The position numbers were made by a program, and so were the translations under genes. Of a DNA stretch of 64,000 nucleotides, positions 2,950 through 60,375 are shown one piece after another. The stretch is taken from positions 57,660,001 to 57,724,000 of the forward strand of contig CM069144.1 of NCBI GenBank assembly GCA_035221665.1. The letters are read 5' to 3'. Below the pieces are notes generated by a model. It searched no databases. It was not told the DNA's origin and saw nothing but the letters and a program-made list of their open reading frames with translations. Origin of the DNA: Okamejei kenojei. Lineage: Eukaryota. Each line of letters opens with the position of its first letter. Position 1 is the first letter of the stretch.

Positions 2950-3232
2950 GAATATTGATTTCTCTAACTTCAAGTAACCCCAGCATTCCCTCTCTTCCAT
3001 CCCTCCCCCACCCGTCGCACCAGTTTCTTGTTTTCACCCAACAAACAGCTAACAATGTCCAGCTCCCTATATCATCGTTACTTTTTTGCATATCTTTCAT
3101 TCATTGCCTATCTCTCGTTTCCCTTTCCTGTGACTTTCATTCTGAAGAAGTGTCTCGACCCGAAAAATCACCCGTAACATCTCTCCAGAGATGCTGCCTG
3201 TTTCTTTGAGTTCCTCCAGCTTTTTGTGTCTT
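2950..3232 (+). mobile_element. Penelope-like element pLTR remnant
   Basis: Similar to 5340-5575, including CTGAAGAAG.GTCTCGACCCGAAA. Confidence 0.6.
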
Positions 3233-4468: not shown

Positions 4469-4601
4469 AATAAAATAAACATACAGAGTGGAAACAAGCC
4501 CTTCGGCCCACTGAGTCCACCCCACCAATGTTCACTCCATACTCCAGATCTATCCTACGCCCCAGGGACAATTTACAGAAGCCAATTAAGCTACAAACCT
4601 G

Positions 4602-5610
4602 GGGTACACAAAAGGCTGGAGAAACTCAGCGGGTGCAGCAGCATCTAAGGAGCGAAGGAGATAGGCGATGTTTTGGGTCGAAACCCTTCTTCAGACTGGT
4701 CAGGGATCAGGGAAACGAGAGATATAGACGGTGATGTGGAGAGATAAAGAACAATGAATGAAAGATATGCAAAAAAGTATCAATGATAAAGGGAACAAGC
4801 CATTGTAAGCTGTTTGTGGTGTGAAAATGAGAAGCTGGTGCGACTAGGGTGGGGGAGGGAGATAGAGAGAGAGGGAATGCCAGGGCCCGAGGGCTGAGGG
4901 AGAGGTGGAGGAGACAGCAAGGGTTAACAGAATTGAGAAAATTCATTGTTCAAGCCCAAAGGATGCAAACTCCCCAAGCGGAATATGAGGAATATGACCC
5001 AAGCAGTCCTTCCAGGTCCGACAGAGGTTCATCTGCACCTCCTCCAACCTCATCTACTGCATCCGCTGCTCCAGATGCCAGATGATCTATATCGGTGAGA
5101 CCAAGCGGAGGCTTGGCGATCGTTTCGCCGAACACCTCCGCTCGGTCCGCATTAGCCAACCCGACCTCCTGGTGGCTCAGCACTTCAACTACCCCTCCCA
5201 TTCCGTATCCGACCTCTCGGTCCTGGGCCTCCTCCACGGCCAGAGTGAGCAACACCGCAAGTTGGAGGAACAGCACCTCATATTCCGCTTGGGGAGTTTG
5301 CATCCTTTTGGCTTGAACAATGAATTTTCTCAATTCTGTTAACCCTTGCTGTCTCCTCCCCTTCCCACCTCTCCCTCAGCCCTCGGGCCCTGGCATTCCC
5401 TCTCTCTCTATCTCCCTGGCATTGTTCTTTATCTCTCCACATCACCGTCTATATCTCTCGTTTCCCTGATCCCTGACCAGTCTGAAGAAGGGTCTCCACC
5501 CGAAACGTCGCCTATCTCCTTCGCTCCTTAGATGCTGCTGCACCCGCTGAGTTTCTCCAGCCTTTTGTGTACCTTCGTTTCTCCAGCATCTGCAGTTCCT
5601 TCTTTAACAC
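4602..5610 (+). mobile_element. Penelope-like retroelement (GIY-YIG C-terminus plus inverted pLTRs) inserted into an HE1-like SINE
   Basis: ORF 5082-5342 IYIGETKRRLGDRFAEH...HFN...LEEQHLIFRLGSLHPFGLN; 4604-4990 is an inverted copy of about 5277-5572; 15-bp TSD TAAGCTAC(A/C)AACCTG at 4587-4601 and 5611-5625. Confidence 0.9.
5482..5514 (+). ncRNA. Hammerhead ribozyme motif in Penelope pLTR
   Basis: CTGAAGA-A-GGGT ctcc ACCC-GAAA-CGTC; core intact, helix I weak. Confidence 0.6.
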
Positions 5611-7171
5611 TAAGCTACCAACCTGCACGTTTTTGGTATGTGGGAGGAAACTGATGCACCCGGAGAAAACCCACATAGTCACAGAAAGAACGTACAAGGT
5701 CAGTACAGACGGCACCTGTAGCCAGGGTCAAACCCAGGTCTCTGGTGCTGTAAGGCAGCAACACTACCACTACGCCACTGTGCTGCCCCAATGTAAGACC
5801 TCACCCATATCCTGCAGCATCAAACACAAAATATAAATTTGAACATCCTCTCTCCCTCGTTACCCTCTTGCCCTTAATATACATACAGGGTTTGGGGATT
5901 TTTATTTTAACCTTGCACACCAATATTATTTTACTTATTTTTCCCTCCCGATATCTTTTCTCAAGTACCATCATCCACTTTCTATCAAGCCTCCTCAATT
6001 TCAGTTCTCAGTAGCTGCCACATGATCCCTTTTTTCTGTATCCAACCCTTGAGAAGCAGGGTTGCTTGGACTCATGGTCCTTGCCTTTCATCTGTGCAGG
6101 AACACCTTGGCCCTGAAAGATCACATTATTATGTCTGAAAGAATCCCACCTGTTGTACGTAGTGTGACCTGCAAGTAGCTGCTCCCTGTCTACTGTTATT
6201 AGTCCTGCTTTATGATCTTAGAATTGGCTCTCAATTTCAGACCTTAATTTGAGTTATTTTTTCCCATAAACACTTTGAAACTTACATTGTGCTCACTGTC
6301 CTCAAAACAATATCACACTGGTCTGCTTCATTTTTTCTGAGATTAATCCAGTAGTTCTAACACCATTTGGACAGTGGATCTAAATGTTTGCCTGGATGTA
6401 ATTAAAAAAATAATTATTTGATTCTTCCACATCCTGAAGAAAGTAGAGTTGACAGATATAATGCCAAAATAACAATGATTAGTCTGCAATAAACTTAATT
6501 AGAAAAAAATAATGATTAGAATGCAGGAGACCATGATAAGAAAGGTTAATCATGTCCTTTATTCCAGTTCTTGGATAGCGATCAACCAGTGAACAAGCCA
6601 TAAAAGCGAAAAACAAATGTGCTGAAAATCTTGTGCTTGCGGCTAAAATCATAATTTGGGATCATTTATAAAATAAAATTCTGTTGTCATTACAACATGT
6701 TATCTAAAGTGAGATGAAGTCGTTATTCACTACCAACATTAATGAATTGGTCAATTGTTCAATGTTCAACTGGATGTATAAACTTCTTAACTGAATAAAG
6801 TAATACCTTTATTAAAACAGTAAGAACATTTCATTAATGAGCACTTGGAGAACTATAAATTATATGGTTATCAACGTCCAATCTTAGACTGATCAACGGC
6901 GAGCAGCACAGTGATGAAGATAATAGAGCTGTTGGTTCACAACTCCGATGATTTTGTTTCAACCCTGACTATCCTGACATGGTGTTTGTATATTTTCCCT
7001 GTGATCAAATGAGTTTGCTCTCATATACTAAAGATGTTTGATTGGTCAACTCCTGATGATAAATTGTCCTTAGTGTATAAGCAAGTGGTTCAATTTGGGG
7101 GCATTGACGGAATGTGGGGAGAATAAAGTGTGCTCAGTGTAGGATTAGTGGGCCAAGATGTGTTATCCTGT

Positions 7172-7268
7172 GTACACAAAAAGCTGGAGAAACTCAGCGG
7201 GTGCAGCAGCATCTAAGGAGCGAAGGAGATAGGCGACGTTTCGGGTCGAGACCCTTCTTCAGACCCAG
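7172..7268 (-). mobile_element. ~95-bp Penelope-derived mini-element with hammerhead core
   Basis: Near-identical to 4604-4697; TSD TGTGTTATCCTGTGT at 7159-7173 and 7269-7283. Confidence 0.85.
7230..7268 (-). ncRNA. Minimal type I hammerhead ribozyme motif
   Basis: Reverse complement UGGGU-CUGAAGA-A-GGGUC UC GACCC-GAAA-CGUC-GCCUA: conserved core, helix II hairpin, GUC cleavage triplet, and UGGGU/GCCUA able to form helix I with wobble pairs. Confidence 0.7.
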
Positions 7269-7768
7269 TGTGTTATCCTGTGTTGAGTGTGTTATACATG
7301 TGTTATCATGTATGTGTCCATGGCTCTATGCACATGATGGATCACAATCAGTGAGGATAGGTGACAGAATATCCTCCACAATAATTGTCAACACACAACG
7401 ATGCCTTCTCAGCCCCTTTCTATAATTCTTATAGAGTTATGACTGCGGCCAAATTCTGCTCTAACATTTTATTACAAGTTTGCAGATAACACCATTGTTG
7501 TAGGCTGGATCTTGAACAATGATGATAAGGAATATAGGAAGGAGATCGATAACATGATGTCAAGACAATTATCTCCCCTTCAATGTCAGCACGATGAAGG
7601 AGATAGTTATTGACGTCAGGAAGCAAGGTGGAGTATATATACCAATCAGCATCAATGGTGGAAAAGTGGCAATGTCAAGAACTTCAAGCTCCTAGGTGTA
7701 AATAGCACCAATTTGTTCTGGATCAACCACATTAAAGCTGCAGCCAAAAGGCACACCAATATTTGGGG

Positions 7769-8095: not shown

Positions 8096-8239
8096 AGGGC
8101 CTGTTCCACTTTTGCGACCTTTACAGGCAACTGCTGGCACCTGTGATACGTCGCCGAAAATGTAAACCTTGAAAATTTTGCCGACCTATCACGGGTGCCG
8201 GCAGTCGCCTGTAAAGGTTGCGTAAGTGGGACAGGCCCT
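8096..8239. mobile_element. Palindromic MITE, PIF/Harbinger-like
   Basis: ~58-bp imperfect inverted arms AGGGCCTGT...ACAGGCCCT; flanks TGA and TAA (TWA-type TSD). Confidence 0.75.
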
Positions 8240-13912: not shown

Positions 13913-14038
13913 TTAAACGGGTGGAAGTTGAAATATTTTAACAGTGGCTGGTCCTTTCCCAGTTGTAGTCAAGACTTGAACCTGAATCCAATATGTGGTT
14001 GAAGGTCGAAGTTTGGAGATTGTTGTAAAAGGCTGATC
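13913..14038 (-). CDS. ANOS1: Anosmin exon 13 equivalent, end of FNIII-4; reads to a TAA stop as assembled
   Basis: CAG acceptor at 14040-14039; DQPFTTISKLRPSTTYWIQVQVLTTTGKGPATVKIFQLPPV* (human [36 protein letters not shown]). Confidence 0.88.
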   Translation of the reverse strand, partial: DQPFTTISKLRPSTTYWIQVQVLTTTGKGPATVKIFQLPPV

Positions 14039-15215
14039 CTGAAAATACACGATTATAGTTGAGCAATCAGTGGAAGATTAATCATTTATAATCTAACCTA
14101 GGTCTCAGATGTTTAAAAACATTGAATCGTGGTAAATTGGTTAAATATCCAGGACATGCTAGAGGTAGCAATATACAAATCCCCAACAGCAAAGGTCACT
14201 GAAGAAATATACAAAGGATAGGTACAGTCAGAAGTAAAGGGAATTACTTAATAAAGCTAGGCAATGTCTGCCCACTAAATCAGTCCTCACATTCTATTGA
14301 CATTAACATCTGAGTAGCTTTATGATTCTGGATATAATTTATAGTATGGTGAACCATAAATAAGGGACAAAAGGTAAAAGTCATCAGTGCCAGCACAGCC
14401 AGAGAGCATATGTGCCAAATTAAAGCTGCTGCTCTTTATACCTGTAAAGGTGGTAAAGAGTCACCAGCCTTAATAACACGTAATATGGAGATTCAGACCT
14501 TTGATTTTTTTCCCAGAATGGAAAATTTCAGTTTAAACTGAATTATCAAGGATGTTGCTTTTCTTACAGTAGAAACGCAAGTTGCATGTGTTGTGATCGT
14601 AGAGGGATTGCCATGAAAGTCTACAACATAGATTAGAGTCTGTTTTATGTCTTTGCAAAAACAATTTTAACTGAATCTTTCTGTTGCTCCTTATGTTACT
14701 CAGTGTCAGTTCTACTTCAAATATCTGTCCACTAAAGGAAGCTTTACAACTCATGCCTAAACCACTTCCTGCTGTAAAATATTCTATGCTCTGAAGTCCT
14801 TCCATCTAGAAGATTTTCCAAACTTCTCTCTTCCTCCTGCAGGCAGTTTTAAATTGTTCACTATTCAGCACTGATTTGCTCAGCACAGGAAATAGTCTCT
14901 CTTTAATCACAACCAAAAACATCCTCACTTTGGAAACTATTTGGGATTCTCCACAGAAGTAATTTAAGTAATTAAATGTTTCCCTTATAGATGTAACTTT
15001 TCATCCTGCTATCATCCTGATGAACCGACACCAAATGCTTTGTTTTATAATATGGTAAATTTATTAAATTAGATGTTAAAGTATTATTTCAGAAAGATAT
15101 AATAATTTTAGAAGCTCATTCAATAAATTCATGTAGGCATGTTACCCACCCACTTTGCATCAATTTAGGGTGTCAAATTACTTCCAATTCCTTTACATAA
15201 TATCAGTAACACTAG

Positions 15216-15422
15216 AAATAGACACAAAATGCTGGAGTAACTCAGCGGGGTAGGCAACATCTCTGGAGAGAAGGAATGGGTGATGTTTCGGGTCTGAAGA
15301 AAGGTCTCGACCCGAAACATGACACATTACTTCTCACCAGAGATGGTGTCTGTCCTGCTGAGTTATTCCAGCATTTGTGTCTTTATTTTCGGTTTAAGCC
15401 AGCATCTGCACTTCCTTCCTAC
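15216..15422 (+). mobile_element. Fold-back Penelope-derived mini-element with central hammerhead core
   Basis: Inverted arms around GGGT-CTGAAGA-AAGGTCTCGACCC-GAAA; TSD ATATCA(G/A)TAACACTAG at 15200-15215 and 15423-15438. Confidence 0.8.
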
Positions 15423-15534
15423 ATATCAATAACACTAGTGTTTATCAACATCTGTAAATAAAATTGCAAACTTTCCACACAGGTGAAATAAAGCTGAAGG
15501 TTTTCTACCCTTCCCCATGATTCACACCACAAGG

Positions 15535-18942: not shown

Positions 18943-19499
18943 CTGAAGGAAAAAAAAATCAATAAATAGCAGAATGAAGAATATCAGGTTGTTTTTCTAT
19001 TTAGATTCAACATTAGATGCAAAGAGAAGCAATTAATAAAGCTGCACCGTCTAATGTTTACTGAACAGCAAAAGCAAACACATCCGTCTTTGCTCTGGCA
19101 ACATTACACCAGATTCTTATATATGTTGATATAATTTCAAAAACATAGGCATTCCTGCATGTGAGTAGCACTGAAATTTATGATGTATTTAGAAAAATAA
19201 TTAAACAGCCCCATTTCTAGACTACATCTGGGATTCAGCCACGTGATCCGGAATATCTGGAATCAAGGTGCAGAATAAAATCAATTTAAGGAACCCCCAA
19301 ATTGGTAAAAATGCATTCTGGTAATTGTTTTTCTTTGAAGAAATCAGTCACTTCTTCAGACTCAAGAAGGGTCTTGACCCGACACGTTACCCATTCCTTC
19401 TCTCCAGAGATGATGCCTGACATCTCTGGTTATAAAAGGCTTGAATGCGGAACAACAAATAATTTGGAAAGTTAACTGTTTGATTAATTTGAAAAGAGA

Positions 19500-28368: not shown

Positions 28369-28546
28369 CCATAGAATCACAATTACTGGGAAAAAAGGGC
28401 ACCATTAATAAACATCCTGTTTCTTACTGAGTTGTATCGTTGTAAGCTAATTGTAGTTTTTTTAATTAGCTTGCAACGATACAACTCAGTAAGAAACAGG
28501 ATGTTAATTAATGGTGCCTTTTTTTCCAGTAATTGTGATTCTATGG
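28369..28546. mobile_element. Near-perfect palindromic MITE with TA flanks
   Basis: TA|CCATAGAATCAC...GTGATTCTATGG|TA; ~84-bp arms and an 11-nt spacer. Confidence 0.8.
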
Positions 28547-31960: not shown

Positions 31961-32984
31961 CTGCTGATGGACTCAGGATGTATAGATTAGTAATATGGAT
32001 TAGGATTATAGACTAGGATATATAGATATAACGTGGAAATGTTAATGGCAATAAGTGCTCTGACTCAAGATTTTACTGGAGTAGACAGACAAAGGGCGGG
32101 GAAGAATAATGTCGATAGCTTTGTTTCAGAACATTGTTACACCACATAGGGGTGCAGAGGTATTGATAGAAAATTGAAAGTTAAAAGGGTAGAGGAAGCT
32201 AATATGTGCAGATAATGCAAGGTTTGCAGGAGTTGATTTGGCTTACCAGGAAACACCAGCTAACTATAGATATAATGAAGTTGAATGGGTAGAAAGTTAA
32301 TGGAGCCCCATAGACAGGACAGGAAATCTATGGTGTAAGTAGGCTAGGGTTTGCAGAAAGGTAAGATTGTTCTGGGGAATTTAGTTATTCTCTGCATTTG
32401 AAATCAAGTGTCCAGAAGGGTATTTTGCTAAAGGATGCCTCGTTTAGGATAGAATGAGATGTGGTAAAACAGTAGAATTAATTGTTTTGATCCATGTCAG
32501 AACAAACAATGCAGGAAAGTCTGGAATGACCTGGTGTACATGGCAGCAGCACCCCTGCTCATTACCAATGAATACCATTTCCACAGAAGCTACCCTATCC
32601 ATCCATCTGTTATCTGACCTCACTGCATTGATCTCTAGTTTTGATTCTACTTATCTCCTGGGCAACTCTCTTCCAACCATCTTATCTCATCTCCAATCAA
32701 TTTCCTACTCCATTCTCCTTAAAGATCTCCCCACCACAGTCTGCCCCATGCTGTAATAGCCATATTGATTCTTTGCAGCTGATTACAACATCACCAACCC
32801 CCCCTCCCAAATCCACAAGGGCCTTCCATAAACCTACAAGTTTTGTTTTTTTCCCAATCTGATACTATTACCCCCACCCCTCATGGACCCGGAGTTAATT
32901 TACTTGATTTCCCTTCGGTGCCTGCAATAGTGAAACACAAAGGAAAGTCCTTTTATAGTAGACGAGCTTTTCAGTAGTACGTTT

Positions 32985-41844: not shown

Positions 41845-42599
41845 AGCATTAGTATTGTTAAACATGTCATGTTTTGAATGCATTAATTTTCTCACTCGTC
41901 CTGGTCAATTGATGCAGCTGCGACGCGTGGACTCGTTCCTCGGCATGAAATCACAGACCTTCAAAGTCTTCCCGTAGTCACTCACGTGACTCTGAAGTAA
42001 AATAGTAAGATTAAACGATAACTTACCAGTTTGAAGTTTGATCGTTATTTTATGAGGAGTTACGTTGAGGGATTACGTGCCCTGCACTCGTAACATAACG
42101 ATCATCTGGTAGTTCTAGTCATCTATAATCTTATTATGTTAGTTCAACAACATTTTCTTTGACTTTTCTTTGACATGCTGCTGCTTTGAAGATTGACATG
42201 CATGCGTGGGGACGGCCTTCTTCACGTAATCCCTCAACGTAACTCCTCATAAAATAACGATCAAACTTCAAACTGGTAAGTTCTCATTTAATCTTACTAT
42301 TTTATCATTTAAATGCTAATTATATCTTATTAACCGTTAATATTTATATACTGCAATTCATTTGTTTTTAAAATATTCTTGTTCTTTCTTTGTCTAGTTG
42401 GTATTAAAACCCTACAAATAAAATTAAACTTTGCAAGTTAGAAACATTTTGATTTGGCAACATCTGCAGTTTGATTGTAATTTGCAGATATTACTGTCAT
42501 TTGAATTTGGGTTTGAGCTCCCTCAGCTGTCCACCTTCCTTTCCTGAATGTTCTGCTATTCACTGAGTGTCGTTCTAATTAGTTGTGGCTCAATACTCA

Positions 42600-44159: not shown

Positions 44160-44380
44160 AGAGACACAGGGAATTGGCAATGTTGGAATCTTGAACAAAA
44201 CATAAAAGGCTGGTGGAACTCAGTGGGCCAGGCAGCCTCCGTGGAGGAAATAGACAGGTGACGGTATTGGTTAGGAACCTTCTTTTGAATGTAAAAGGCT
44301 CCCGACCAGAAACGTGCCCATCCATTCCCTCCACAGATGCTGCCTGGCCCGCCGAGTTCCTCCCGCACTTGTGTGCTTTG
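44160..44380. mobile_element. Older fold-back Penelope-derived mini-element
   Basis: GCTGGTGGAACTCAGTGGGCCAGGCAGC...GATGCTGCCTGGCCCGCCGAGTTCCTCC inverted arms; decayed hammerhead core. Confidence 0.6.
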
Positions 44381-47240: not shown

Positions 47241-47612
47241 GTGTGGCCTGTTCATTGAAAATGGAGGATGTCGGTTCATCTTTGATTAAATCGTATGTGC
47301 AACAGAGACTTTTCAGAATGTGGAATTTTGTTCCTGTTAAACAACTGATTTCCATTCTCAGGGATCGTTGGAGACATTTGAATGGGACAATAATAACAGT
47401 TAAGGCATTGCAAAATGGGCTAACTTCAGCTCCCAGGTTATTTACCAAATTATTAAACCGGTGCTTGGACTGCCAAAAGCTAAAAAACACTTGTTCAGAC
47501 TTATCTGGATGGTATTTTACACGCTGTTTCAGCTGCAAATTATAATTAAGAAATTGAGGTTCCTCATCTATCCAGTTAAATTTTTAGTTGATACCAACTA
47601 CTGTTATTGATT

Positions 47613-47731
47613 GTACACAAAAAGCTGGAGAAACTCAGCGGGTGCAGCAGCATCTAAGGAGCGAAGGAGATAGGCGTCGTTTCGGGTCGAGACCCTTCTT
47701 CAGACTGGTCAGGGATCAGGGAAACGAGAGA
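47613..47731 (-). mobile_element. 119-bp Penelope-derived mini-element with hammerhead core, nested in DIRS copy B
   Basis: TSD TGTTATTGATT at 47602-47612 and 47732-47742; near-identical to 4604-4722. Confidence 0.88.
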
Positions 47732-49706
47732 TGTTATTGATTATTGGGGTTTACCGTTAATTATTTGTCTGTGACTACGCCCTGGGGCAAGAGATTGGAA
47801 ACAATTGAAGCTTGTAACAACCTTGTTGTTATAAAGCAGCCTTCTATACATTAAGTGTAATTTGCAATTAGCAGCAGGGTTTCAGCTGTGAAAATTGGAC
47901 CTTTGCATTATCATAACTTACACCATGCAAAGTAGTAACTTCTCAGGTGCCATGTAGGTCATTGTTAACAGATCTATGCAATTACCAGCTGAAGTCACCA
48001 AAGTCACAATGGTAGACAGACAGTATTCAGCATTGCTCCAGTACTTTTGGTCATTTAACCTTCAGTTATGTTACAAACTGATGCTAGTGCTCAAAGATGG
48101 GAAATTACTATCCCATCTCTAGTCACAGAGGCGGATGGGATGTGCATGAGTTACCACTCCCTCAGTTATGTGGTATCAACTACCTAAAATCACTAGGTGC
48201 ATTCTATGGGTTAAAGGCTTACTGTGCGAATATGCATATCTGCATGCTCACCTACAAGTTGACACACTACGGTGGTGGCATATATTAATCACATGGGTTC
48301 AATCAAGCTAATATCCTGTGATAGTTTACCTAACCTCATTTGGCGCTGGTGTATCATCACGTAAATCAATGACAACACAGAATGGATGTTGGATCACAAA
48401 GTATTTAATGACATTGTGGATTGATGGAACGCCAAATATCGATTTTTGCATCTAGTCTCAATCACCAGTTGCAAAATATCAGGCATGGCGGCCATTCTCA
48501 GGGGCAGTGGTGATGGATGCATTCTCGCTACACTGGGGAGGAATGTTCGTTATGTCTTTCCTCCATTTTACCTCATCAGTCGGTGCTTGCTTAAAAACTA
48601 GCAAGACTCCGCCTCAGGCTTGATAGTGCCTGACTGGCCTACACAGCCATGGGTCCACTCATACTGCAAATTATAACAGAGCCTTTTATGGCTGTTCCCA
48701 AATGCAGAAATCTGCTGGTTTATCCCGTGACTGGGGAGAACCATCCTCTGCATGAGCGGATCAAATTGTTGGGTTGCAGACTATGAGAAGACCTTTCCTG
48801 GGGTACGGACTGTCAGATTGTGCGGTGGATGTAATCACTGCGGCCTGAAGAGATAGTACCAAGAAACAGTACATCTCCTATATCAAGGAATGTAAGTTTC
48901 CTGTTTACAGTCCAATATATCGTATGACGCGGTATGTATAACAGATGTCTTGGTATTCCTCTCAAAGCTATATTTCACGAGAGATGGAGTTACAGTGCTA
49001 TAAATTGTGCTAGAAGTGTCTTGTCGTCATACGTCCTGCTGGGGTCGGGACACCGCGCTGTCGGGTCTCGACCTCTGATATCCAGATTTATGAAGGGTAT
49101 CTCCAACTCAAATTCCCCCAGGCCCAGGTACTCGGAGATATGGGATGTTTATGTCCTGCTGACACTGCGTCGCCGGTGGGCTCCAGCTACATTCCTGTCC
49201 TCGGTCTAAATCACCTACAAAGTGGTTATCCTCATGGCGCTGGGTTCAGCGCAACGGGCCCAGTCGTTGCATAAGCTACGACTGGACAGGATGGTTACAG
49301 CTGCAAATAATATGATACTTATGTTCATGACTTAGTCTTGCAGAGTAGATCGGGTCAGGTCTCATACTAGTTTCATGGCATACCCCATGGACCTTTGGTT
49401 GTGTGTGTGGTCACACATCTATACAGTCATTATGTCACCTAAAGCCTTAGAGGCTCTGAACTAGCAATGAACTAGCAATGAACTAGCAATGAACAAGCAA
49501 CAACATCAGCAGCAAGGGTTATGGATGTTTCGCTGGACCTCATCCTAGTGGCTGCAGGATGGTCACACAAGCAAATTTCCAAATGTGTTATAACAAATCC
49601 ATTGCCAGACCGGGGGTATTTACCAACACTATTTTTAGGTTCTATTTTTTAATTCCTCTTGGATGAGTGGGATTACTAGAATTATCATTTCATCATTAAA
49701 AAGCAT

Positions 49707-51122: not shown

Positions 51123-52329
51123 AAAAAGCATCAGCATGTTTGAATCTATGTCGTGCTTTATTAAATATCACTCATCCCTGGTAAATTGATGCAGTGTGTG
51201 ACGCATGGACTCGTTTCCATGGCATGAAATCACAGAGCTTTGAAATCTTCACGGAATCACTCACTTGACTCTGAAGTAAAATAGTAAGATTAAATGAGAA
51301 CTTACCAGTTTGAAGTTTGATCTTTATTTTATGAGGAGTTACGATGAGCGATTACGTACCCTCTGCTCCCAACCCTCGTATCATAAAGGTCATCTGGTAG
51401 TTCTAGTCTTCTCTAATATTACTATGTCACTTCAACTACTGTTATCTGTGATTTCACACCGCTGCTTTGAAGATTGACGCGCATGCGGGCTGGCGGGTTC
51501 TTCACGTAATCCCTCATTGTAACTCCTCATAAAATAAAGATCAAACTTCAAACTGGTAAGTTCTCATTTAATCTTACTATTATAGAAATAATTGTCATCA
51601 CTATCCATTGTCTGCATACAATTTTAATTAAAACTAAATTTTAATCACTTGAGCAGCTCCTACCACTTCTAGTCTCCTGATATTAGAACATGGACAACAC
51701 TATAACTGTGATGGAAACCCTAGAGGATCACACCTGGAAAACAATGGCTCAACCATGAAAAGAAAAACACTGGAAGTGAACAGTGAATAAATAAGCCTGG
51801 TGAACTTTTGGAATCCCTTTGGGAAATATTTTAATTTTGTGAGTATGATCCATTGATCATTTTAATCCATGAGTAGACTCTATGAGGCAGCAGTCCTCAG
51901 ATTTGAAGTCTTATTCCTCATGTTTTAGTTTCTTATAGATACACCATGATGCCATAAAACATTGATTCTGTTCATCCCAGGAATAATTTTGGGAGGACAT
52001 TTTATATATGATTCAAGAACCAATTCTGTGTCCTAGGATTTGGCATGTGCTATATTATTTTTTACCCCCAATGTACTGTGTGTGGAAATTGTTTTTTTTT
52101 CACCCAAGAGTGGAATGCAATTATGATGATTTCCAAGCTGAATAATACTACTCTAGAAATTTAACAGGGCAGTTTCATTTGTGAACCACCATTGTCTGAT
52201 GTCATGTTTTTCTAGGTCAGGTGTGCACCCCATGAATGATGTTGTACAGGGTTGCCAGGGAAGCTAGGACGGAGGCTTTCTTGTTGTTGTGTCCTCCCAG
52301 AATAACCAGGTTGTACCAGCACCAGCTTC

Positions 52330-60130: not shown

Positions 60131-60167
60131 ATACAATGACTTTATCACATAACTGTAATATTCTTAC

Positions 60168-60375
60168 CTTTGAACATATTTGTTGGTGTTTGGCAAGTTT
60201 GACCACAACCATTAGGACAACATTTCCTGATACTGGGGCACTCGGTATCTACGTTGCAGCTTTGGATACAAGCTGCAGCAAAGCCGGAGGCTCTCTGGGG
60301 TGCTGGACAATTCCCTTGCTTCACCGTTTGAATGGATCTCAAAAACTCACAGCTGGTCAAACATTCATGGTGCTT
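60168..60375 (-). CDS. ANOS1: Anosmin-family exon (equivalent to human exon 4): end of Cys-rich region plus WAP domain
   Basis: TAG acceptor (60377-60376), GTAAG donor (60167); 208 bp; [69 protein letters not shown] with all 8 WAP cysteines. Confidence 0.93.

Follow-up and report, generated by a model that had tools for sequence, protein, structure and literature searches.

The window, by which we mean the whole analysed stretch of 64,000 nt from Okamejei kenojei, contains an anosmin-like gene on the minus strand (13916-60375) together with short hammerhead-bearing insertions, hereafter called mini-insertions, and their relatives (Table 1). Scanning 258 of the 264 minus-strand frames of at least 45 aa located a WAP exon at 60148-60375, matching anosmin-1 aa 89-159 (E 8e-30), and an FN3 exon at 13916-14077, matching aa 592-631 and followed by a stop. 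This stop lies near human residue 632, and the C-terminus may be shorter than that of human anosmin-1. Since the gene is confirmed on the minus strand by its WAP and FN3 exons, the copy at 47613 lies in one of its introns and the copy at 7172 lies 6.7 kb beyond its stop, as a preliminary description of this DNA had proposed. That description also stressed the common orientation of copies and gene; the strand is indeed the same, but this is uninformative with two solo copies, plus-strand arms in the window as well and genome-wide strand counts of 16,287 versus 16,227, and no evidence for an orientation bias was found within the anosmin-like gene. Elsewhere in the window a tandem array with a 48-bp unit (856-1527) and two copies of a MITE-like element (41936-42304 and 51215-51584) with 81-bp inverted arms ~145 bp apart were observed. 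Two long hairpins (28396-28520 and 8116-8219), whose scores against the plant miRNA models MIR7504 and MIR1883 stay below the gathering threshold, are probably fold-back repeats.

Element coordinate 0 denotes the last C of the common end ...TTTTGTGTAC (GTGTAC), so that CUGAAGA starts at -90. On the minus strand the copies at 7172, 47613 and 4604 all terminate at ...TTTTGTGTAC, and their similarity to a long copy is 97-99%; both solo insertions were found with the 15-bp and 11-bp TSDs ascribed to them earlier. In the TSD of the 7172 insertion 13 of the 15 bp are unambiguous and 2 bp are common to the element 3' end. A sequence check likewise bore out that CUGAAGA-hairpin-GAAA is intact in the 7172 and 47613 copies and that the GUC triplet is kept by the former alone, the latter carrying GAC; the arm at 4604 has lost G12 of GAAA. 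The motif occupies only ~35 of ~95 bp, which does not agree with insertions consisting largely of a hammerhead. Although the inverted arm at 4604 ends at the common sequence as described, its fuller identity is one half of a 1-kb head-to-head insertion of a Penelope-like element (PLE) with a GIY-YIG fragment (Pfam GIY-YIG E 2.5e-4, below the curated cut-off).

Table 1 Mini-insertions and related features in the window.
Feature	Position	Strand	Remarks
Solo mini-insertion	7172..7268	-	Element positions -92..0 (7264-7172), with 4 untemplated bases, the last a G, added at the 5' junction
TSD of the 7172 insertion, left copy	7159..7173	.	15 bp
TSD of the 7172 insertion, right copy	7269..7283	.	15 bp
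Minimal type I hammerhead motif of the 7172 copy	7233..7264	-	CUGAAGA 7262-7256, 4-bp helix II, GAAA, CG loop, GUC
Solo mini-insertion in an intron of the anosmin-like gene	47613..47731	-	Element positions -118..0; triplet GAC
TSD of the 47613 insertion	47602-47612 / 47732-47742		11 bp
Head-to-head PLE insertion, tail-less arm	4602..4990	-	Element positions -396..+2; hammerhead core mutated
Partner of the 4602..4990 arm, tail-bearing	4996..5610	+	GIY-YIG fragment 5004-5339; internal deletion
Hammerhead with intact core in the 4996..5610 arm	5480-5511	+	
Tail of the 4996..5610 arm	5573-5607	+	~35 nt
Whole ~1-kb head-to-head composite insertion	4587..5625	.	TSDs included; 15-bp TSD, 14/15 identical, 4587-4601 / 5611-5625
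Older relative, head-to-head pair	15222..15427	.	Joined at the hammerhead 5' edge; tail on one arm
Older decayed pLTR relative	3109..3229	+	73% identity
Older decayed pLTR relative	19330..19416	.	With short inverted piece at the hammerhead 5' edge
Older decayed head-to-head pair	44200..44375	.	71-76% identity

The parent element

The mini-insertions represent the terminal (pLTR) module of a PLE of the Neptune type, which is 3,993 bp long and has reverse transcriptase (RT), Cys linker and GIY-YIG endonuclease (EN). The Penelope origin and the recent activity supposed in the preliminary description are thereby substantiated, as the insertions are identical to the end of this autonomous unit and diverge by ~1-2% in a sample that is biased to young copies. 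In L153 and L332 the unit is ordered pLTR, hammerhead, position 0, tail, ORF, 3' UTR and pLTR, and the tandem hammerheads of L332 lie 3,993 bp apart. Because the pLTR stands directly ahead of the ORF in tandem copies, the mini sequence both opens the unit and closes each insertion. L332 matches RVT_1 with E 2e-6 and GIY-YIG with E 5.6e-4, both just under the curated cut-offs, and the sampled long copies are frameshifted. A C-x4-C-x2-C linker precedes the GIY-YIG motif in L032, L009 and L063; the available part of PMC8557442 gives a CX2-5CxxC linker between RT and EN as the criterion of EN+ PLEs. Several features of the Neptune/Nematis type of EN+ PLEs are present, namely RT followed by a C-terminal GIY-YIG in one unit, the linker, the pLTR, partial tandems, the inverted partner and a 30-40-bp tail. 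The linker and the report of Neptune and Poseidon in sampled vertebrates would favor Neptune over Nematis.

The start of the long ORF apparently lies near +70, downstream of the tail. An ATG at -40 was rejected as its start, being unsupported in L319 and opening a 58-codon frame only. A 25-mer spanning the junction between tail and ORF matched its source copy alone. Long copies are rare, since a 28-mer of the RT region has only 473 matches genome-wide; it is outnumbered by a 27-mer of the ORF start (873 matches). Partial tandems in which +100..+480 is fused to a pLTR are frequent among L302-L351, and in several copies the sequence ends immediately beyond the tail, at +34..+54.

Genome-wide, the 32-nt 3' end is matched exactly at 32,514 places and its reversed control at none. 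From the first 100 among the matches listed for it 98 loci were fetched, and after overlapping loci and the duplicated L086 had been dropped, 97 arms with the exact anchor, all from the first 7 Mb of one contig, made up the sample analysed below. Genome-wide pattern counts include sister families and are inflated by passive multiplication of mini-insertions inside other repeats, which was recognized by common flanks (L092, L095, L097; L106, L108, L112, L120; L273, L276, L292, L299) and concerned 7 of 30 loci inspected in one set.

The ends of the copies

A common 3' end and a variably truncated 5' end had been described for the insertions. The 3' end is indeed fixed and non-random, but it is bimodal, as 61 of the 97 arms end at 0..+7 (about +2) and 36 carry a ~35-nt tail (+35/36). 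The truncation at the other end is not random either: 52 of the 97 arms stop within the 15-nt window -83..-97 at the 5' edge of the hammerhead, which corresponds to 3.9% per nt compared to 0.13% per nt at -98..-200, a 29-fold difference. The remaining arms stop at -65..-82 (7), at -60..-64 (1), closer to the 3' end (1), at -98..-200 (5) or beyond (31), the long class including four read-throughs of a sister subfamily and two split alignments that were reassigned by hand. Genome-wide, exact 36-mers drop from 28,873 at -85..-50 to 14,823 at -97..-62, and junction-type matches amount to 3,664 at -93, 4,170 at -92 and 1,009 at -94, compared to 191 at -62. The edge is sharp on the upstream side, and loose ends at the same position were found in contigs of two other organisms (runs X1 and X6). 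The pile-up is present for both 3' ends (37 of 61 tail-less and 15 of 36 tailed arms) and is reached by two of eight ORF-crossing copies (L315 at -86, L319 at -88), the other six stopping elsewhere, three of them at +42..+54. Its occurrence in both 3' classes and in ORF-crossing copies suggests that the template, rather than the RT start, is responsible for it. Ribozyme cleavage is ruled out as the source of the main 5' end by the single arm at -60..-64. A spliced template was rejected as well, since the hot-spot arms do not have a common upstream exon, yet CAG (-94..-92) after a pyrimidine tract resembles a splice acceptor.

An untemplated G precedes -93/-94 in seven of seven same-strand jump junctions compared to 2 of 21 at -95..-971 (Fisher p 3e-5). 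Both sides of such junctions are element sequence, hence the filler is unambiguous; the seven originate from six insertions, L326 was read by eye, and 16 reference-wrap rows, seven rows inside the ORF and L229 (a sister read-through) had been dropped from the set. At A/G-CAGTC junctions (-94) G occurs in 70 of the first 100 of the 1,009 matches, compared to 42% expected from base composition. Four of 30 inspected -94 loci represent one passively amplified flank, and after removal of this flank and of read-throughs G remains in about 16 of 25. By eye, a modest excess was also found before -93 (38/100 compared to 27% expected) and before -92 (42/100 compared to 30%), and many solo mini-insertions lack the extra G or show longer fillers. 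Among the best 12 joints of a longer list from contigs of the public run X15, in which the kind of joint is not shown, 11 enter -88..-94 via a linker ending in G. The initiator consensus is YYANWYY, which is fitted by CCAGTCT at the predicted RNA start. Accounting for these end statistics, the RNA would begin at C-94/A-93 within this initiator-like sequence under a promoter in the pLTR, and the untemplated G would be the copied mRNA cap. Such a G is taken as copied cap in L1 according to the available part of PMC9341517, and for D. virilis Penelope that of PMC2377424 describes an internal Inr/DPE promoter.

Exact duplications of at least 8 bp flank 56 of 96 insertions and measure 13-15 bp (the mode) in 31 of these; a few of the duplications are due to chance. 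In all 20 clear head-to-head pairs, two broken ones being left out, exactly one arm carries the tail; the L360/L361 pair from another set has tails on both arms. This layout with a one-armed tail is already known for PLEs (PMC3846280, PMC8557442, as far as available), and the ~35-nt extension represents the tail known from PLEs; in Anolis PAc this tail is bracketed by two internal RT start sites (available part of PMC11167929). The fixed 3' end most likely represents the RT start, and by analogy with PAc the two 3' ends may correspond to two such sites.

The hammerhead and its predicted cleavage site

All features of a PLE minimal hammerhead were found, i.e. CUGANGA, GAAA, UH, helices I and II and a palindromic helix III region, the latter as an ACGU palindrome, in line with the short palindromic helix III to which the preliminary description had referred. 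Pairing was observed in 90.8% of the cells over six pairs in 51 copies compared to 5-53% in slid controls; U-G and U-A pairs numbered 27 and 21, and covariation did not clearly exceed that of the shuffle control (39-81 of 500). The native helix I has 2 bp, and the 5-bp helix of the 7172 copy is supplied by the junction filler. Folding z-scores ranged from 0.07 to 1.07 for six tail-less stretches. An Rfam covariance-model search of the whole window and of a 151-bp stretch, which had been suggested as a check on the motif, gave no hammerhead match.

The scissile bond is predicted between -63 and -62, which in the 7172 copy would be between 7235 and 7234. The core is intact in 27 of the 34 arms starting at -97..-90, and since the mini-insertions retain the whole motif, their template RNA was uncut. 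In the available part of PMC11167929 uncleaved RNA is the dominant substrate for PAc in vitro. Thirty of the 191 loci matching a -62 junction were inspected and represent 22 independent insertions, 16 of which fit a start at -62 (some ambiguous by 1-2 nt), besides four small deletions, one odd case and L364. Starts at -62 thus make up roughly 1% of arms, with a background control of only two events from a local sample. L364 (G000:C1, near 164,173,067) is TSD-flanked, with an A-rich tract of 34 nt precisely between -63 and -62; it looks as though copying had passed from the 3' cleavage product to a polyadenylated 5' product. Furthermore, L376-L379 (G000:C2, 137,651,882-137,652,106) form one insertion of four tandem units each starting at -62, and L331 contains two tandem units each starting exactly there; later duplication could explain both arrays. 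The starts at -62 and the A-rich tract of L364 give a weak hint at rare hammerhead cleavage in vivo. Same-strand hammerhead duplications 40-47 nt apart and joined by G were seen in L282, L036 and the X15 joints, and L282, with three hammerhead cores in tandem, would be a natural substrate on which to test dimer cleavage.

Origin of the mini-insertions and known systems

With a probability of roughly 0.7 we regard the mini-insertions as terminal-module insertions of a young EN-bearing PLE, likely produced by an RT that starts ~95 or 130 nt from a capped 5' end and runs off. The capped RNA would be transcribed from about -94 by the pLTR promoter, and the element protein would nick both target strands ~14 bp apart. 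Internal priming at +2 and/or +35 followed by run-off at the capped end would yield strong-stop-like inserts of 95 or 130 bp from uncleaved RNA, priming of both nicked strands would give head-to-head pairs with the tail on one arm, and a jump of the RT to a downstream point after run-off would create partial tandems. Long copies may originate from read-through RNA or from a second pLTR. As the pile-up is 15 nt wide, run-off must be supplemented by trimming or microhomology. Since the template is nearly always uncleaved, the ribozyme would be a passenger in mini copies and would probably be cut only rarely. The mini-insertions are probably by-products of the autonomous PLE rather than a separate ribozyme-driven element, because half of them stop just before the hammerhead, likely by RT run-off at the capped end.

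The separate retrozyme/SINE-like family proposed in the preliminary description is not borne out: the mini-insertions are identical to the end of the autonomous element with the same variants and divergence, they form no tandem family, and their ends are not at the cut site. As a SINE-like family that is transcribed from a promoter inside the pLTR and mobilised again by PLE protein acting in trans, they would have a promoter in every copy, if it is there, and the discrete-looking 5' boundary, the very high copy number and the existence of non-autonomous PLEs such as MRC1 (available part of PMC8557442) fit such a family. We nevertheless consider it unlikely, given that mini-insertions are distinguished from long copies neither by variants of their own nor by age: 49 mini-insertions and 30 long arms, a small sample, revealed no private variants over 51 nt, with divergences of 1.8% and 1.3% (p 0.57) and a common C/T variant at -12 (p 0.24), and mini-insertions carry a helix II variant found in a sister long subfamily. 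In addition, ORF-crossing copies have the same 5' boundary, and most mini-insertions terminate at the first RT start, lacking the downstream RNA needed by PAc, whose minimum RNA passes both starts (PMC11167929, available part). Re-mobilisation of tailed mini-insertions is possible, as an internal RT start would leave no 3' flank in DNA.

A second explanation, in which the RT is blocked or captured at the 5' edge of the hammerhead by RNA structure or a bound protein while the RNA does not end there, has a similarly low standing. In modeled folds an RNA ending at the tail pairs the tail with the CUGAAGAAGG core at a probability of 0.9-0.99, spanning -92..-80, and palindromic junctions are common; however, the pairing drops to at most 0.03 in two natural copies once the ORF start is added, and the long-range helix was rejected. 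Covariation support for it is absent, RNAalifold on 51 decayed copies giving four pairs unrelated to it, the stop position is no different in arms that start in the tail or cross the ORF, and the untemplated G is not predicted. A non-LTR retrozyme of tandem 130-170-bp units, cut by dimeric hammerheads, circularised and reinserted, is highly improbable in spite of the intact cores, the ACGU palindrome, the derivation of retrozymes from pLTRs (bioRxiv 10.64898/2026.07.22.740005, as far as available) and head-to-tail joints with short spacers in contigs of other organisms, because the 5' end of the copies is upstream of the cut site instead of at it, the native helix I is short, an Rfam match is absent, and the absence of tandem arrays already counts against it, only 74 tail-to-hammerhead junctions with 8-45-nt spacers and no common spacer family being present in 2.76 Gb and none of 30 inspected belonging to a long array. 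In runs X1 and X6 head-to-tail joints of a -94..+35 unit with 12-36-nt spacers were observed, possibly retrozyme-like units.

Returning to run-off from a capped RNA, the tens of thousands of young copies bear on the still poorly understood integration of PLEs and on the role of their minimal hammerheads, and provide end statistics that predict an RNA start at C-94/A-93, two RT starts, the use of uncleaved RNA and a rare cut at -63/-62. More tentatively, and at somewhat less than even odds, the genome may be a fossil read-out of the PLE cycle, with the cap at the hammerhead, half of the integrations of strong-stop type, tandems formed by RT jumps from the cap, ~15,000 mini-insertions with the start site and ~1% of the templates cut in vivo. 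If so, a metazoan minimal hammerhead would for the first time have left evidence of its activity in vivo. In genomes of this kind, high-copy hammerhead 'SINEs' should be viewed with caution, as they can be by-products of autonomous elements. A literature search, to which subscription papers, Repbase and Dfam were beyond reach, found no paper on a 5' pile-up or cap signature in PLEs; a cap-bounded pile-up is not mentioned in the available part of PMC12910113, and pile-up terms are absent from the text supplements of PMC11167929, whose Fig. S2 (PAc genomic coverage) may bear on the question.

Metazoan non-LTR retrozymes resemble the mini-insertions in being non-coding and PLE-related and in their type I hammerhead, but are described as tandem units that have canonical ribozymes and form circular RNA (available parts of PMC7229834 and bioRxiv 10.64898/2026.07.22.740005), whereas the mini-insertions, known here from DNA alone, are non-tandem, have a minimal ribozyme and ends that are not set by cleavage; isolated hammerhead duplications do exist (L282, L036). 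Metazoan PLE minimal hammerheads, as far as PMC4209133 is available, have the CUGANGA/GAAA core, the extra nucleotide before helix II and the palindromic 15.2-16.2 region in common with the skate motif, as well as thousands of dispersed single or opposite-strand copies, there ascribed to truncated PLEs; the skate helix II (4 bp) and native helix I (2 bp) are shorter than the 7-8 and 4-5 bp of Schistosoma. EN+ PLEs of the Neptune/Nematis type (available parts of PMC8557442 and PMC3846280) are alike in RT, Cys-rich linker, GIY-YIG, hammerhead pLTR, 30-40-bp tail, inverted 5'-truncated partner, partial tandems and TSDs, whereas ~95-130-bp run-off units with a sharp 5' end and a cap-like G, which constitute half of the arms here, are not described in those parts. 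PAc, a Poseidon of Anolis carolinensis, belongs to a different clade and its RT starts lie inside the ORF, whereas the long ORF of the skate element apparently follows the tail; a 5' pile-up is not reported in the available part of PMC11167929, according to which PAc is alike in two internal RT starts bracketing the tail, extension of both strands, a hammerhead shortly upstream of the RT starts and uncleaved RNA as the main substrate.
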